IMG/VR virus record: IMGVR_UViG_3300043464_002177 | Direction: 5' to 3' (one strand) | From: a virus | Taxonomy: Duplodnaviria > Heunggongvirae > Uroviricota > Caudoviricetes | Length of the DNA: 64,000 nucleotides | Part shown: in pieces, positions 12,818 through 62,196 of the stretch | How positions within the stretch are numbered: position 1 is the first letter of the stretch | Layout of the letters: every line of letters starts with the position of its first letter | The notes under the pieces: model-generated | The model's input: the letters and a program-made list of their open reading frames with translations, nothing else | Databases searched by the model: none | What the model was told of the DNA's origin: nothing | Made by a program: the position numbers and the translations under genes

Positions 12818-12836
12818 AACATTTAAATTCTGACGC

Positions 12837-12950
12837 ATGTATTACCTTCCAATCTGGCTCGAGTTCCTGATCTATGGAACAATTGTATTTTTCGCCATAG
12901 TAATGGTGAAGTACTGCTTCGATCTGATAAAGATCGTTAGGGAGAAGTAA
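12837..12950 (+). CDS. hypothetical 37-aa hydrophobic micro-protein (not in track)
   Basis: ATG 12837; MYYLPIWLEFLIYGTIVFFAIVMVKYCFDLIKIVREK; single predicted TM helix. Confidence 0.3.
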   Translation: MYYLPIWLEFLIYGTIVFFAIVMVKYCFDLIKIVREK

Positions 12951-12998
12951 CCAGATCTCCCATGTATTACCTGGACACCTGGGCGGGACAAGGAAAAT

Positions 12999-13014
12999 GA
13001 AATAAAACTATTTT
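12999..13014 (+). promoter_or_regulatory. GAAATAAAACTATTTT motif copy with no ORF downstream
   Basis: Followed by GC-rich palindromic sequence (AGCCGGCT) and a CGTATGAC copy; candidate sRNA promoter. Confidence 0.4.
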
Positions 13015-13052
13015 ATTTTTTAACCAGCCGGCTAGCCTGGCTCCCGGACACG

Positions 13053-13060
13053 CGTATGAC
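13053..13060 (+). repeat. CGTATGAC octamer copy (non-coding)
   Basis: acgCGTATGACacc. Confidence 0.5.
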
Positions 13061-13115
13061 ACCCCACCGATGAGCCTCATATATATGGGGCCTTTTCTTT
13101 TCCTGGATGTCAAGA

Positions 13116-13142
13116 GGCGCCGAGTCCTTTATACGAGGCGCC
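13116..13142. repeat. Hairpin family A copy 1: GGCGCC-[GAGTCCTTTATACGA]-GGCGCC
   Basis: 6-bp GC stem, 15-nt loop; loop near-identical to copy 2 while stem sequence differs but stays complementary. Confidence 0.55.
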
Positions 13143-13163
13143 GATCTATCCCACAAAAAATTG

Positions 13164-13171
13164 CGTATGAC
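13164..13171 (+). repeat. CGTATGAC octamer copy (non-coding)
   Basis: ttgCGTATGACatagg. Confidence 0.5.
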
Positions 13172-13206
13172 ATAGGGGACCCTCAGGGATCGCCACCTAA
13201 GATTTT

Positions 13207-13221
13207 AAATAAAACTATTTT
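13207..13221 (+). promoter_or_regulatory. AAATAAAACTATTTT motif copy with no ORF downstream
   Basis: Followed within 10 nt by CGTATGAC, then hairpin B1 (13255-13281); only an 11-codon ORF follows. Confidence 0.4.
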
Positions 13222-13229
13222 AAATTTCA

Positions 13230-13237
13230 CGTATGAC
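13230..13237 (+). repeat. CGTATGAC octamer copy (non-coding)
   Basis: ttcaCGTATGACgccc. Confidence 0.5.
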
Positions 13238-13247
13238 GCCCGGCCCA

Positions 13248-13290
13248 GTAGATCGGCCGCTCCCATAAAGGGGTCGCGGCCTCTTAGACA
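13248..13290. repeat. Hairpin family B copy 1: TAGATCG-GCCGC-TCCCATAAAGGGGTC-GCGGCC-TCTTAGACA
   Basis: Stem GGCCGC/GCGGCC 13255-13260/13276-13281; loop has inner CCC/GGG mini-stem; flanks and loop conserved with copy 2. Confidence 0.55.
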
Positions 13291-13344
13291 TCCCCGAATA
13301 TTTTGTTTAAGTATTACGCGCAAAAGTTAAACACTCAGTAACAC

Positions 13345-13352
13345 GTCATACG
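13345..13352 (-). repeat. CGTATGAC octamer copy, inverted orientation
   Basis: acacGTCATACGcgcg. Confidence 0.45.
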
Positions 13353-13372
13353 CGCGCGCCGCCGGAGGCAAA

Positions 13373-13401
13373 GCCCGCCGAGCCCTTCATGCGAGGCGGG
13401 C
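13373..13401. repeat. Hairpin family A copy 2: GCCCGCC-[GAGCCCTTCATGCGA]-GGCGGGC
   Basis: 7-bp GC stem, 15-nt loop matching copy 1 at 12/15 positions; stem covaries. Confidence 0.55.
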
Positions 13402-13482
13402 GTATTACATGAATATCAAGAAGAATTTTAGAATTTCAAAAAAATGTGGTCGTGATTCACACAAGGGACACTTCCTGGGTGG

Positions 13483-13511
13483 TTCCCACTTATTAACATT
13501 TTTTCCCACTT
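13483..13511. repeat. Direct repeat TTCCCACTT x2, 20-nt period
   Basis: ggTTCCCACTTattaacatttTTTCCCACTTtttg. Confidence 0.4.
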
Positions 13512-13880
13512 TTTGTGATTGTAATACAGGGAGCCCAAAAAAGTAGGGCTACAGGGGGTAATATCGCCAATAAATTTAGTACGATAGACGATGTACCTAA
13601 AATGGCAGTAAAATATATGTTTATTTATATAAATGTAGTCAATTTGTCATGGTCATAAAACCATAATACCTACTTCTTTTTTTTAGCTTTTGCTACCTTA
13701 ATTTTGTTAACAGTATGCTTCTGACCAAGATTATCAAGGAAGAGTTCACCTATAAAATAGAATAAAACTACACCTAAAGGAAAAAGGAATGTGCTCATAA
13801 TTTCAAGTTTTAATATGCAAAATTAATTATTAATATCCATACTACCAAATCTATTGTGCAAAATGTAGAGCATTTGTTGT

Positions 13881-13920
13881 GCCAAATTCGGAAGTAAAAA
13901 CGCGCCAAAGTCGGAAGTAA
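13881..13920. repeat. Direct repeat GCCAAAnTCGGAAGTAA x2, 21-nt period
   Basis: GCCAAATTCGGAAGTAAaaacgcGCCAAAGTCGGAAGTAAttag. Confidence 0.45.
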
Positions 13921-13921
13921 T

Positions 13922-13960
13922 TAGATCGCCCCTCCCCATAAAGGGGTGAGGGGCTCATAG
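13922..13960. repeat. Hairpin family B copy 2: TAGATCG-CCCC-TCCCCATAAAGGGGTGA-GGGGC-TCATAGAAC
   Basis: Stem GCCCC/GGGGC 13928-13932/13950-13954; same conserved flanks and loop as B1 with compensatory stem change; abuts 3' end of - strand ORF 13955..14137. Confidence 0.55.
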
Positions 13961-15650: not shown

Positions 15651-15713
15651 ATATTTTAAGTTTTAGAATTCAAAATTAAACAATAATATCCATACTGGCA
15701 AATAAAATATTAA

Positions 15714-25552: not shown

Positions 25553-26734
25553 CTAATTATATAATTTTTTATTATTTTTCTTTGCATCGTCCCAATTATA
25601 AAAAATATCCCACCAATTAGTCACCACTTTTCCATCAAAAGTAATTTTCTTTTCGCTAGGAATAGATTGAAACCAATATACCAACCAAGAACCATGTGGA
25701 TCACCACCACCAATCCAATTTCCAATAAACATATTCCATTTGGTATGCGATTTGGTCTTATTAAGACTTATTTGGCTATTCCTAATTTCTTTTTTCCAAA
25801 TAGCAGAAGTTACAGTATCTTTTTTACCACCATTTGGATTCCAATCAGCAATATCTGATACAATTTTTCTACCATTATCATAATCATAATCTCTCATTGA
25901 ATTTGGTGTAAAGTGTGTGTTACCACATCTACCTTCTGTATCGGCACCAACTTTCCCAACAAATTTATTTGAAAAAAAATTATCGTCAATATTTCTCATT
26001 TGAGCTTCAATCTGATGTCCTCTACAATGAATCATTTCAGCATATGTTCCTCTATAATAATGACCATACACAACATATGTTTTATTATAAACAGGTAAGT
26101 CTGATTTATCCATAAGACTATTTGATACATCACCATATGGAGATGACATATTAGATTCTGGAACCATCATATTAACCCCCAAACTATAGTTAAACCAAAC
26201 TTCTTTAACACCTTCTTCTTCAACTAGTTTTTTAAGTCCTATAGAATCGAACAAAGCTTTATAGTTTGGTACATTGCTATTATTATAAAATGTAATAGTA
26301 TGTAGTTTAAAATATTTTACAATCTTTATACCGACATAAGGTACTTCTGTTGGGTTATTATAACTACGAAATTTTGAACCTTCTTCAATGGCAAACTTAG
26401 CCCTTTCGTTATTGTTTAATGTCCAATTAAACACATCGTCTTTATTCAAATCAGAAACAACGGTTCCAGCAACACTAGGTAGATCTTTTTTGACACTTTC
26501 CAGTAATATACCGTTAGTATCTGTTGGTATAAAATCAATTATAATAACAGGAATAATTAATTTTGCCCCAGCTGCTGGTGTAGAAAGGTATGATGTGATT
26601 GTTGTATCAACAATCGATTTGAATTTATAGGTAGCAGTTTGTGGTTGCTGAACAACAGGCTGCTGCTTCTGTGGGGTTGGTATATCTTCCTTATTGCAAG
26701 AAAATAATACTAATATTATTAGCAAATATCTCAT
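25553..26734 (-). CDS. hypothetical surface lipoprotein (393 aa)
   Basis: MRYLLIILVLFSCNKEDIP: lipobox plus N-K-E-D after Cys resembling the Bacteroidetes export signal. Confidence 0.5.
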   Translation of the reverse strand: MRYLLIILVLFSCNKEDIPTPQKQQPVVQQPQTATYKFKSIVDTTITSYLSTPAAGAKLIIPVIIIDFIPTDTNGILLESVKKDLPSVAGTVVSDLNKDDVFNWTLNNNERAKFAIEEGSKFRSYNNPTEVPYVGIKIVKYFKLHTITFYNNSNVPNYKALFDSIGLKKLVEEEGVKEVWFNYSLGVNMMVPESNMSSPYGDVSNSLMDKSDLPVYNKTYVVYGHYYRGTYAEMIHCRGHQIEAQMRNIDDNFFSNKFVGKVGADTEGRCGNTHFTPNSMRDYDYDNGRKIVSDIADWNPNGGKKDTVTSAIWKKEIRNSQISLNKTKSHTKWNMFIGNWIGGGDPHGSWLVYWFQSIPSEKKITFDGKVVTNWWDIFYNWDDAKKNNKKLYN

Positions 26735-26790
26735 AGTTTTACTTTTTATGAAGCAAAATTAGCAATAATTTGTGATATTCCAAATTTTTT

Positions 26791-27969: not shown

Positions 27970-28022
27970 ATATTCAAACATTAGTTATATATAATATAAT
28001 GAAAATAATCCTAAATAAAAAA

Positions 28023-29264
28023 TTATTCAGTATCTTTTTCTACATTATTATCAGACATTGATTCAACACCATCAATGATAAATTTAGAACACTTAACAAT
28101 TACATTCAAATTTACCATAATCTTTTCTTTATTGGCTTTCCACAATGCTAGATATGTTGGATGTTGTGTCACTGGTAATTCAAAATACTTCATTACAGCA
28201 TATGAAACAGACTCAGCTTGCAACTCTCTCATCTCTGCAGTTTGCGCTGCTGGATCGTCAATATAGAATGGTGATTTAGTTTTCCAGTGTAATAATTCGT
28301 GAGCTAATTCGTGTACTAATACACTCGCAACAGCCACACCTTCAATATCAGAAGATAAATTAATGTGTTCACCTGCACTGAAACCTTTTTCACCACCTTT
28401 AGCTGTATCTTTGGTTACTTTAATATTTAATGATTCTGCAAATTGTTTTAATTTGTTTACCAACTCATCAGCAACTTCATTCTTATCATTCTCAGCATAC
28501 CATTTTGGTGTTTCTGGTACTTCACCTTTTTCGTTCAATGGATATGTGTCAGATAAATCATATACCTTACCCATTGAGAATCTGGTAACAGTTTGACCTT
28601 TCTTTACGGCATCATCAACTTGACTAAAATCAACACCTGTTGTGTCAACTTCAGCGTCTGCTTTAACTTGCATTGGAAACCAAATCCAAATAGCTGTTGC
28701 ACCCTTTTTAACCCCACGATTATTTTTCTTCCAGGTGTTATAACCAGCAACCTTCTTAGCGTCTTTCTTTTGTAGATAGATCAAGAATGAATTGGTTAAA
28801 CTATAGTTGTGAAATCTACTATAGAAGGTTAGATAGTTTCTAATTGCAGCATCCATAGCCGCTTGATCGGTAGCATTAGCTAAGTCGTTAATGTACATAT
28901 CAAGCTTATCCATGATTAAGTTTTTCTTTGATTGTTCAACGTCAGTTTCCTCAATGAAATTCTCAAGCATTTCAAGATCGTCAATGATCTTTCTTAATTT
29001 GTTATGCCCCTTTATTAGAACATTAACCGCTTCAAGTTTATCATAGTCACCAACCCAGTGTCCTAGATCTGGTTTCCAATCAAAACCTAGTTTTCTAAAC
29101 TCTTTGGATAAACCAATAGTCTCTTTAACTCTATCTCTTTTATCCTCTTTGTCTGAAAATATTACAATTTTCTTATTTGTATCGTCTTTTTTAAGGAATA
29201 TGTCTTCCTTTAAATCAGCTTGTAGCGTTGGCCACTCGGATTCTTTAATTCTAATCTTTTTCAT
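28023..29264 (-). CDS. ArdC-like anti-restriction protein (N-terminal ssDNA-binding domain + C-terminal HExxH zincin domain)
   Basis: YLTFYSRFHNYSLTNSFLIYLQ resembles the ArdC N-domain signature; HELAHELLH metalloprotease motif in C-terminal third. Confidence 0.5.
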   Translation of the reverse strand: MKKIRIKESEWPTLQADLKEDIFLKKDDTNKKIVIFSDKEDKRDRVKETIGLSKEFRKLGFDWKPDLGHWVGDYDKLEAVNVLIKGHNKLRKIIDDLEMLENFIEETDVEQSKKNLIMDKLDMYINDLANATDQAAMDAAIRNYLTFYSRFHNYSLTNSFLIYLQKKDAKKVAGYNTWKKNNRGVKKGATAIWIWFPMQVKADAEVDTTGVDFSQVDDAVKKGQTVTRFSMGKVYDLSDTYPLNEKGEVPETPKWYAENDKNEVADELVNKLKQFAESLNIKVTKDTAKGGEKGFSAGEHINLSSDIEGVAVASVLVHELAHELLHWKTKSPFYIDDPAAQTAEMRELQAESVSYAVMKYFELPVTQHPTYLALWKANKEKIMVNLNVIVKCSKFIIDGVESMSDNNVEKDTE

Positions 29265-29277
29265 AATATATAAATAT

Positions 29278-29302
29278 TAAAAAACCCGGAATAATCCGGG
29301 TC
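29278..29302 (-). terminator. Rho-independent terminator (- strand)
   Basis: ACCCGGA/TCCGGGT stem with A-run on + strand, just downstream of 29308..29724. Confidence 0.55.
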
Positions 29303-29307
29303 TTATA

Positions 29308-29724
29308 TTATCTGTTATCCTTGATATCGATATAGTTATCGTGGAAATCGGTTCCCAACTTATTAAGAATGAGTCTAGCTCTTAATCTAAACACGTCATC
29401 ATATTGACAATGATCCTTAAATTTAAGTAACTGGTGTCTTATCGTTGTGTGATCTCTACCGCCCAGAATCTGACCAATTGAAACAAGGGTCATGTTTAGT
29501 TTAATTTTTAAAACACCGGATAAAAGTTTTCTACTGTTAACAATTTCCGATTTTCTAGATCCAGATGATAACTCTTCTAGAGTTACATTACCTTCTTTAC
29601 AAATCACCTCGATAATTTCTTCTTTTGTCATAAGTGTTTTTTTGTAGTTAAGATAAGGGTACCTTTCTTTAGAAAGCCCAGCCATTTTTAAGCCAGGGAA
29701 ACTATAAGGACTAATCATTTCCAT
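29308..29724 (-). CDS. DnaA C-terminal (domain IV) DNA-binding domain-like protein
   Basis: SRKLLSGVLKIKLNMTLVSIGQILGGRDHTTIRHQLLKFKD resembles the DnaA HTH signature (G-x-x-DHTTV-h); no AAA+ domain present. Confidence 0.45.
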   Translation of the reverse strand: MEMISPYSFPGLKMAGLSKERYPYLNYKKTLMTKEEIIEVICKEGNVTLEELSSGSRKSEIVNSRKLLSGVLKIKLNMTLVSIGQILGGRDHTTIRHQLLKFKDHCQYDDVFRLRARLILNKLGTDFHDNYIDIKDNR

Positions 29725-29730
29725 ATTTTA

Positions 29731-29770
29731 ATGTTTTCACAAATATATCCACATTTGTGAATCCACCCAA
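29731..29770. promoter_or_regulatory. DnaA-box-like palindrome upstream of DnaA-CTD-like gene
   Basis: TTCACAAATAT-ATCCAC-ATTTGTGAA-TCCACCC: 9-bp perfect inverted repeat flanking TATCCACA; second ATCCAC 9 nt downstream. Confidence 0.4.
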
Positions 29771-29778
29771 ATATATTT

Positions 29779-30399
29779 TTAGAACGGCATTTCGTCTAAA
29801 ACACCATAGATTTCTGGCTTACTACCAAATCTATTGGTTACAATCTTATAAATGGTACGGGTTAATTCAATATCATATTGTGCATCGTGAAGTTTAGATT
29901 CATCAATTTCAATACCAACGGCTGTAGCCACACTCATCAATTTGAAGTTTGGCATCGCAACTCTTTTTTCTAAAAGATATTCAGTTGCTAACACCATAAC
30001 ATCCAATGTGTTCCCCCAGAAATAAGAATTAAAGAAATCATCTTTCTGATGAATCTCATACCATCTTCTTAAGAAAGGATTATCAAAAGATGCATTATTA
30101 TACCCAACCAAAAACATCTTATCTGTTTTCTTATACCTGTTAATGTATCTATTAACCATCGCCATAAACTTAGCAAACATAGCTTCTGACGGCTCGTATG
30201 TTGCCAACATATCCATTGTTACATTCGATACTTCCAATGCTTTTGGTTCAATAACAGCACCTTCATATGGTTGCATCTTAAAGTTAAATTCTTCCACAAC
30301 AGTACCATCTATTTCAATACAACCTGAAAATTGATGAATAGCATTTGAGCGATAGTCTAACCCAGTTGTCTCCAGGTCAAAGAAAAGTTTTTTGATCAT
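29779..30399 (-). CDS. DnaQ-like 3'-5' exonuclease (DEDDh family)
   Basis: Start at MIKKLFFDLETTGL (Exo I motif); HDAQYDIELT Exo III motif with His. Confidence 0.65.
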   Translation of the reverse strand: MIKKLFFDLETTGLDYRSNAIHQFSGCIEIDGTVVEEFNFKMQPYEGAVIEPKALEVSNVTMDMLATYEPSEAMFAKFMAMVNRYINRYKKTDKMFLVGYNNASFDNPFLRRWYEIHQKDDFFNSYFWGNTLDVMVLATEYLLEKRVAMPNFKLMSVATAVGIEIDESKLHDAQYDIELTRTIYKIVTNRFGSKPEIYGVLDEMPF

Positions 30400-51414: not shown

Positions 51415-51585
51415 ATGGGATGCGGCTGCAAAAAAAAGAACAATGAAAATCCTCAACCTACTGAAGGACAGGTTACATCAACAGTTGTAACAGATAATCA
51501 AACAACACAACAACAACAAACACAAGAGCAAGTTGTACAGGTAGCTGTAGCTCTTCGTGAGATGATTGAAAATAAAGAACTTTAA
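51415..51585 (+). CDS. hypothetical 56-aa Q/T-rich micro-protein starting MGCGCKKK (not in track)
   Basis: ATG 51415 preceded by aataaactatttattttaaaagcaatact; followed by terminator 51591-51629. Confidence 0.4.
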   Translation: MGCGCKKKNNENPQPTEGQVTSTVVTDNQTTQQQQTQEQVVQVAVALREMIENKEL

Positions 51586-62073: not shown

Positions 62074-62106
62074 TTTGTTTTTGTTTAAGAAAAATTTATA
62101 AAATTG

Positions 62107-62196
62107 CGGGGAGGAAGAGATTCGGACTCTCGATTGAATGTTAAGTCCAATAGCAGCTTCGGAGGCTGTCGGTTTAAACCACTCACCCACCTCCCC
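62107..62196 (-). tRNA. tRNA-like cloverleaf, 90 nt (anticodon-loop CUCCGAA suggests anticodon CCG; long variable arm)
   Basis: On - strand: 7-bp acceptor stem GGGGAGG/CCUCCCC; U8; D-arm with A14, GG, A21; anticodon stem CAGC/GCUG with loop C-U-CCG-A-A; 21-nt variable arm with 5-bp stem; T-arm GAGAG-UCCGAAU-CUCUU (G53, C56, A58, C61 conserved; C at 55); discriminator G; no encoded CCA. Confidence 0.35.

Follow-up and report, generated by a model that had tools for sequence, protein, structure and literature searches.

The usual target of DnaA domain IV is an asymmetric 9-mer, to which it binds as a monomer. A DnaA-like DNA-binding domain with the role of a transcription factor is known from GafA of the Rhodobacter gene transfer agent (PMC9638019), and stand-alone PF08299 genes have been mentioned, uncharacterised, in pelagiphages of the HTVC010P type (PMC8477408). 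Promoters of the Bacteroidota follow a consensus of a −33 TTTG and a −7 TAnnTTTG, the latter refined to TAHHTTTG (PMC6847099). In Flavobacterium johnsoniae the start site lies 4–5 nt after the −7 element, AT-rich motifs are centred near −18 and −28, and leaders that are A-rich and without a Shine-Dalgarno sequence are traits of the phylum (PMC6847099).

Here we analyse a spacer of 54 nt (29725–29778) between two minus-strand genes in a Caudoviricetes phage genome (IMG/VR record IMGVR_UViG_3300043464_002177), of which a stretch of 64,000 nucleotides, called the window below, was available. The downstream gene encodes a protein with a DnaA-like DNA-binding domain, and an initial annotation had interpreted the spacer as a DnaA-box operator by which this gene would regulate itself or sense host DnaA. 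Our comparison leads to another explanation of the site as a whole, which we favour with some reserve: a Bacteroidota-type promoter of the cassette gene, overlapped by an operator-like palindrome.

Results

A stand-alone DnaA domain IV gene and its neighbours

The description of the downstream gene as DnaA-CTD-like was borne out. Its 138-aa product scores 55 bits against Pfam Bac_DnaA_C (PF08299; cut-off 31.5, E 8.4e-15) and aligns to domain IV of E. coli DnaA (PDB 1J1V, E 7e-5) and also to 8BTG. The segment GGRDHTT.H aligns with DnaA residues 430–439, the helix-turn-helix motif GGRDHTT being conserved, and an arginine lines up with DnaA R399. DnaA domains I–III are absent, and the N-terminal extension is 34 aa long, so that the product is a stand-alone domain IV protein. 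Contigs with an identical protein, one of them 117 kb long, were found in JGI, ENA and Logan metagenome assemblies; a search of cultured phages for the protein returned no close relative. Residues 4–13 of the protein (29308–29724, minus strand) form a motif, (N/S)PY(V/S)(F/I)PGLK, that precedes the domain IV fold. This motif is kept to about 30% identity in phage relatives (also in L104, L107–L112, L133 and L186) and is absent from bacterial DnaA in the alignments inspected; it might be a partner-binding or oligomerisation motif.

The features of the region are collected in Table 1. The stop codon of the upstream exonuclease gene lies 6 nt before the −33 element, and a terminator scan between that gene and the promoter found none. 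On the other side of the DnaA-domain gene, an equivalent CCGGG-loop-CCCGG hairpin followed by a T run was present in 13 of the 15 relatives checked, the distant clade included. The slot further downstream varies (L011, L013 and L015–L020 compared with 27,980–29,300 of the window): relatives carry an ArdC-like gene, an HNH endonuclease gene, or both, which suggests homing-endonuclease traffic beside the cassette.

Table 1. Features of the spacer and its flanks (positions in the window; negative numbers are relative to the predicted transcription start)
Feature	Position	Strand	Remarks
Intrinsic terminator directly 3′ of the DnaA-domain gene	29281..29304	-	10-pair stem and T run
Gene for 138-aa stand-alone DnaA domain IV protein	29308..29724	-	Pfam PF08299
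Predicted transcription start	29734..29735	-	inferred from spacing to the −7 box; leader about 10–11 nt
Promoter-proximal palindrome arm	29736..29744	.	ATTTGTGAA on the gene strand; about −9 to −1
−7 element TATATTTG	29740..29747	-	fits TAnnTTTG and TAHHTTTG
DnaA-box-like 9-mer ATATCCACA	29745..29753	+	8/9 match; about −18 to −10; judged coincidental
Promoter-distal palindrome arm	29753..29761	.	TTCACAAAT on the gene strand; about −26 to −18
Second ATCCAC	29761..29766	+	not conserved in orthologues
−33 element TTTG	29768..29771	-	part of TTTG-N20-TATATTTG match, 29740–29771 (minus)
RNase T-like 3′-5′ exonuclease gene	29779..30399	-	upstream neighbour; synteny conserved in relatives

A probable Bacteroidota-type promoter in the spacer

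Read on the gene strand (minus), the spacer and its borders are TAA AAATATATTTGGGTGGATTCACAAATGTGGATATATTTGTGAAAACATTAAAAT ATG. This strand contains TTTG-N20-TATATTTG, the pattern of a Bacteroidota sigma-A −33/−7 promoter. The 20 nt between the two elements fall within the criterion of about 19 ± 2, and 15 nt separate the end of the −7 box from the ATG. Taking the G of the −7 box as −5 puts the start at about 29735. With 13 occurrences in the window, a number that none of 100 shuffles reached, the bipartite pattern (TTTG-N17-21-TAnnTTTG) exceeds the 3.66 ± 2.0 of shuffled sequence, and nine of the 13 matches sit 15–60 nt upstream of an ORF start on the same strand. A Shine-Dalgarno-like pentamer was seen for only 2 of the 113 ORFs in the window, and A makes up 48% of the 20 nt before its start codons. 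The only cultured phages with nucleotide similarity are those of Flavobacterium, Bacteroides and Prevotella, and the similar stretches are short (2–7% of a 4.5-kb query). A search of 185,579 reference genomes for a prophage copy or host found no close relative. From the promoters, the missing Shine-Dalgarno sequences, the A-rich leaders and the distant phage similarity we infer a host in the phylum Bacteroidota. It is very likely, judging from these sequence features, that the gene has a promoter of its own in the spacer, of the type read by the primary sigma factor of such a host.

Sixteen distinct orthologous intergenic regions were compared (alignment A3), all syntenic with the exonuclease gene and with protein identities from 99% to 55%. 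The bipartite promoter is found in 14 of them, with TTTG 19–20 nt from the −7 box; the other two, L027 and L029, have TTTT. In none of the 16 does the −7 box deviate by more than one base, and six of its eight columns are invariant and another nearly so. Invariant columns concentrate in the TT of the −33 element, the −7 box and the distal arm of the palindrome, where five of nine columns are invariant and two nearly invariant; the 5′ part of the spacer by the distal arm has no invariant column, and the centre and the leader also vary. No orthologous locus of 2–8 kb has more than two bipartite matches, and wherever there is a match, one is the site at the DnaA-domain gene. In two homologues from other gene contexts, L021 (58% identity) and L186 (40%), TTTG-N20-TATATTTG or TATCTTTG is retained, and their upstream regions contain neither palindrome nor DnaA box. 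Promoter, gene and terminator are conserved together, and the three therefore form a conserved monocistronic unit, a self-contained cassette.

Two further promoters were considered and set aside. A second promoter using the upstream TATATTTG (29775–29768), which would put the hairpin into the 5′ leader, is disfavoured as the TAnnTTTG there is not conserved and only its TTTG is. An antisense promoter on the plus strand is disfavoured as its TAnnTTTG is not consistently present in the orthologues.

Elsewhere in the window, two promoter-like sites on the minus strand, at 13818–13849 and 15671–15702, are nearly identical (TTTG(G/C)(T/C)AGTATGGATATTA(A/T)T(A/G)(A/T)TTAATTTTG). The former is followed by no ORF of at least 45 aa (13547–13817) and might be the promoter of a small gene or of a non-coding RNA. 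Another motif, TATATT[A/T], is the most enriched 7-mer of the upstream regions: TATATTA was seen in 12 of 49 where 1.5 were expected, and TATATTT behaves similarly. In the form (C)T(T)ATATT(A) it stands 5–25 nt before many start codons, among them those at 27981, 29264, 30878, 41306, 43648 and 45275 (minus) and at 51415 and 12569 (plus), and it flanks the DnaA-domain cassette on both sides. This may be a phage-specific middle or late promoter. That the motif of the neighbours differs from the promoter of the cassette suggests a different temporal class.

The DnaA-box match

All the elements that the initial annotation had described, namely the letters, the inverted repeat, the second ATCCAC and the 54-nt gap, are present where it had placed them, and ATATCCACA does agree with TTATCCACA at 8 of 9 positions. 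The reading built on them, in which host DnaA or the phage protein binds TATCCACA and the ATCCAC that follows and thereby regulates the gene, is nevertheless highly improbable. If one mismatch is allowed, the window contains 36 matches to the DnaA box, about one per 1.8 kb, and shuffled sequence gives 26.4 ± 4.8. The match at the site is of chance frequency, and no 500-nt stretch across the 64 kb contains three or more. The relaxed consensus TTWTNCACA, for which a genome-wide search had been proposed, gave 10 matches (12.4 expected) without clusters, and the site itself deviates from it at position 1. With no DnaA-box cluster in 64 kb, the expectation that further boxes would mark the replication origin was disappointed as well.

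The orthologues also speak against an operator of DnaA boxes. The centre that is specific to the box is the least conserved part of the alignment, reading GGA, GAA, TGA, TAA, TAC or GAC on the gene strand in the 16 sequences. The GTGG core becomes GTGA, GTTG or GTTA, and TTAC or AGAC in the distant clade; expressed as the essential box core CCAC, it is lost in L015, L017, L019, L020 and L026 and completely in the clade at 55% identity. The second box, ATCCACCC, is not conserved at all: its gene-strand sequence GGGTGGAT is replaced by GGTGAGAT, TGGAATAT, TGGAGTAT, GGGCGCAA, TTAATTGT, GTCACTGT and others. The motif proposed by the annotation is thus not conserved in related genomes. There are two points in its favour besides the match itself. 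The closest relatives have TGTGGATAT or TGTGAATAT as the centre, both of which match at 8 of 9 positions if box position 5 is left free, and the phage protein keeps residues that align with R399, D433, H434, T435 and H439 of DnaA, whose roles are given in the part of PMC9638019 that cites Fujikawa 2003. The equivalent of H439, however, is N in many orthologues, and the site shows no matching pattern. DnaA boxes were also not enriched in 64 distinct upstream regions of other small DnaA-domain genes from phages and metagenomes, with 0.13 per kb compared with 0.35 per kb in the remainder of those loci.

Of the positions that match, six are supplied by the conserved flank of the arm (TGT) and the beginning of the −7 box (TAT); the other two are in the variable centre. 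The match arises at the junction between the inner end of one arm and the −7 box, and on the sequence comparison we regard it as a coincidence, without a function of its own. As for autoregulation, the idea could still hold by way of the conserved, operator-like palindrome on the gene's promoter; the proposed route through DnaA boxes does not.

TGGATAT was also considered as a box signal and was rejected, its copies lying inside coding sequence with unrelated flanks. It occurs 37 times in the window against 17 expected, with 13 copies between 17,400 and 20,100, and one of the ORFs that carry it spans about 19817–19130 on the minus strand. Its enrichment probably reflects codon or peptide usage, not a DNA signal.

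Nothing in the region near 29.7 kb suggested an origin. The cumulative GC skew follows the direction of transcription, with a peak near 12–13 kb, where gene blocks converge, and a minimum near 50–51 kb, where they diverge. Between the converging rightward block (to 12754) and the leftward block (from 13955) lies a non-coding region (12,830–13,960) that is locally GC-rich in this genome of 33% GC and contains repeats: CGTATGAC(A) four to five times, CATGTATTACCT twice, AAATAAAACTATTTTA twice, and three GC-rich units of 37–40 nt (TAGATCGGCCGC...CCCATAAAGGGG...) in direct and inverted orientation. Candidate functions for this region are those of an origin, a packaging site and a genome end. The only tRNA gene in the window encodes a tRNA-Arg (CCG; 62106–62196, minus strand) of unusual length (91 nt).

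The palindrome and its possible roles

On the plus strand the palindrome consists of TTCACAAAT (29736–29744), the spacer ATATCCAC (29745–29752) and ATTTGTGAA (29753–29761), and is a perfect inverted repeat of 9 bp around ATATCCAC. Five nucleotides of the proximal arm belong to the −7 box as well, and the box-like ATATCCACA overlaps the −7 box and the inner end of an arm. The window has 11 perfect inverted repeats whose arms measure at least 9 bp and whose spacer is 3–12 nt, compared with 5.9 ± 2.1 in first-order Markov simulations, and several of the 11 resemble terminator hairpins. Taken alone, the palindrome is therefore at chance level in an AT-rich window, and it is the comparison of orthologues that lifts it above chance. 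Over the 16 sequences 89.6% of the pair cells are complementary, a value reached by one of 500 shuffles; with the partner arm slid by 1–3 columns, complementarity was 27–65%. The outermost pair changes from T-A to G-C in five sequences (the distant clade) and the third pair from C-G to A-T in two, with C-T intermediates. These paired changes represent perhaps two evolutionary events, and the same two pairs hold eight mismatched cells; the covariation term of RNAalifold is about zero. Conservation of the half-sites, T(C/A)ACAAA, extends to the orthologues of 55% protein identity. Their spacing is 10 nt in the close clade and 10–11 nt in the distant one, a difference of 1 bp between clades. As the −7 box already puts constraints on the proximal arm, only the distal arm provides independent evidence.

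From these comparisons we consider the palindrome likely to be functional, and its most likely role would be that of a repressor operator covering −26 to −1. That its binder is the product of the downstream gene is a good deal more tentative, and we would call it rather unlikely. The conserved half-site is unlike a DnaA box, the recognition residues of the phage protein do not co-vary with changes in the half-sites among the orthologues, and the 1-bp difference in spacing between clades sits uneasily with a rigid dimer. In the 64 kb no other copy of the palindrome was found, nor of its core beyond chance, so that the operator idea has no regulon behind it. Perfect palindromes with arms of at least 7 bp were likewise not enriched in 62 upstream regions of the wider family (6%, against 8% of controls).

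A scan of IMG/VR for TCACAAAT-N8-ATTTGTGA gave 53 matches, which fall in coding sequence, in iteron-like repeats and in one cI/Cro intergenic region; among the 53, only the orthologous locus adjoins a DnaA-domain gene. The intergenic match is exact and lies between divergent cI-like and Cro-like genes on an unrelated phage contig (L204/L213). By analogy, it illustrates that such a sequence can serve as an operator. Seven of the IMG/VR contigs (L198, L203, L206, L221, L225, L239 and L240; 32–119 kb) belong to an unrelated phage group, in which tandem iteron-like TCACAAAT-CACTTGTG-ATTTGTGA units and GTGATTTGTGATAA repeats occupy a non-coding region. Within the window, the promoter at 26754–26784 (minus strand), which belongs to a gene for 393 aa (25553–26734), has a spacer that contains TCACAAAT, shifted by one nucleotide relative to the register of the distal arm and without a matching second arm.

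The conserved complementarity might instead belong to a hairpin in transcripts that read through from the exonuclease gene, as a processing or stability element or as a damper on translation of the DnaA-domain gene from the polycistronic mRNA; transcripts from the gene's own promoter would start past the hairpin and escape it. We think this unlikely, even though the spacer folds at −14.3 kcal/mol (z −5.1, with none of 200 shuffles as good) and a hairpin is kept in 16 of 16 orthologues (−4.3 to −10.8 kcal/mol). The positions that vary are those of the loop, and the change in loop length between clades (4 versus 10–11 nt) is better tolerated by a hairpin than by a dimer. Two of the single-sided changes produce G-U pairs on the gene strand, and the two genes are not separated by a terminator. 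The absence of a covariation signal weighs on the other side, together with at least five distinct non-pairing states in the stem, which is AU-rich and weak. The outer stem that reaches the start codon is not conserved, the spacer has no match in Rfam, and the exact overlap with the −7 box and the promoter spacer is left without an explanation. Intrinsic termination by the palindrome was considered too and was discarded: the scan did not call it, its stem has two G-C pairs, and neither strand has a T run.

It is also conceivable, if improbable, that the palindrome as such is without function. What looks like a proximal arm would then be the −7 box and start region, and the distal arm would have been kept as an AT-rich element of the promoter spacer or through short divergence times. 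Perfect 9-bp inverted repeats are expected about six times per window, the AT-rich motifs near −18 and −28 of F. johnsoniae promoters (PMC6847099) offer a precedent for such an element, and L021 and L186 have the promoter without the palindrome. The promoter at 26754–26784 points the same way with its unpaired TCACAAAT, but this sequence is not conserved in the orthologues (the syntenic promoters of L015 and L017). It tells against a palindrome without function that the distal arm stays complementary across clades although the flanking spacer, the centre and the leader have diverged. Two positions have changed on both arms together, and the slid-partner controls paired far less well than the true partners.

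Discussion

The reading that we favour, a promoter overlapped by an operator-like palindrome, suggests the following course of events. The primary sigma factor of the host would read the −33 TTTG (29771–29768) and the −7 TATATTTG (29747–29740), with a start near 29735. Together with the terminator at 29304–29281, this promoter would make the DnaA domain IV gene a self-contained cassette inside a long leftward gene array. The cassette would probably be expressed early, a timing suggested by the host-type promoter. A protein bound to the palindrome would exclude RNA polymerase. The simplest candidate for such a repressor would be the helix-turn-helix protein encoded immediately downstream, and the outcome would be autorepression; another phage or host factor would be equally allowed as the binder.

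A bolder version is that the stand-alone DnaA domain IV protein is a phage transcription factor that represses its own promoter through the inverted T(C/A)ACAAA half-sites. We regard it as doubtful. If it held, the specificity of the protein would be unlike the DnaA box, and the protein would be a counterpart, in a Bacteroidota phage, of the DnaA-like domain of GafA; such proteins elsewhere would be regulators or host-takeover factors, not replication initiators.

The type of promoter is textbook for the Bacteroidota and an operator over a promoter is classical, so the finding is a new instance of both. The residual interest lies in a DnaA-domain protein that may be an autoregulated transcription factor with a specificity other than that for the DnaA box. 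The conserved palindrome offers a testable target of 26 bp, with one candidate of 138 aa, and with it a route to the function of stand-alone DnaA domain IV proteins. An uncultured freshwater phage appears to use canonical Bacteroidota promoters for a subset of its genes, from which the host phylum and, for those genes, the DnaA-domain gene included, a presumed temporal class can be read. A match to 8 of 9 positions of the DnaA box beside a DnaA-like gene in an AT-rich phage should not be annotated as autoregulation or as an origin before relatives have been checked.

Compared with primary-sigma promoters of Bacteroides and Flavobacterium, the site has the same fit of the −7 element to TAHHTTTG and a TTTG 20 nt upstream, and the leader of the phage gene is likewise short, A-rich and without a Shine-Dalgarno sequence. 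The bipartite motif also precedes about nine other genes in the window. Unlike a generic Bacteroidota promoter, this one is phage-borne and predicted only, and it has a conserved palindrome across −26 to −1. Operators that overlap a core promoter, such as those of phage cI/Cro and the LexA boxes, provide the second parallel: here too an inverted repeat covers the −7 box and the spacer, with conserved half-sites and a variable centre. The locus differs from such operators in having a single copy in place of tandem operators, a repressor that is putative only, and 8-bp half-sites that are 10–11 nt apart with a spacing that varies between clades.

As in the autoregulation of dnaA in E. coli and B. 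subtilis, a gene for a DnaA DNA-binding domain has a box-like 9-mer in its promoter. In contrast to those systems, there is a single match of 8 of 9 positions, at chance frequency and not conserved, the protein is without domains I–III, and the DNA elements that the phage locus does conserve are not DnaA boxes. GafA and the pelagiphage proteins are set apart by the lack of a detectable close sequence relationship and by their hosts, which are Alphaproteobacteria, and GafA autoregulation uses the C-terminal sigma-like domain instead of the DnaA-like one. What the locus shares with GafA and the PF08299 proteins of pelagiphages is that a phage-like element has, among its early or replication genes, one for a small helix-turn-helix protein of the DnaA-like kind, and in GafA the DnaA-like N-terminal domain serves the control of transcription, not the initiation of replication (PMC9638019).
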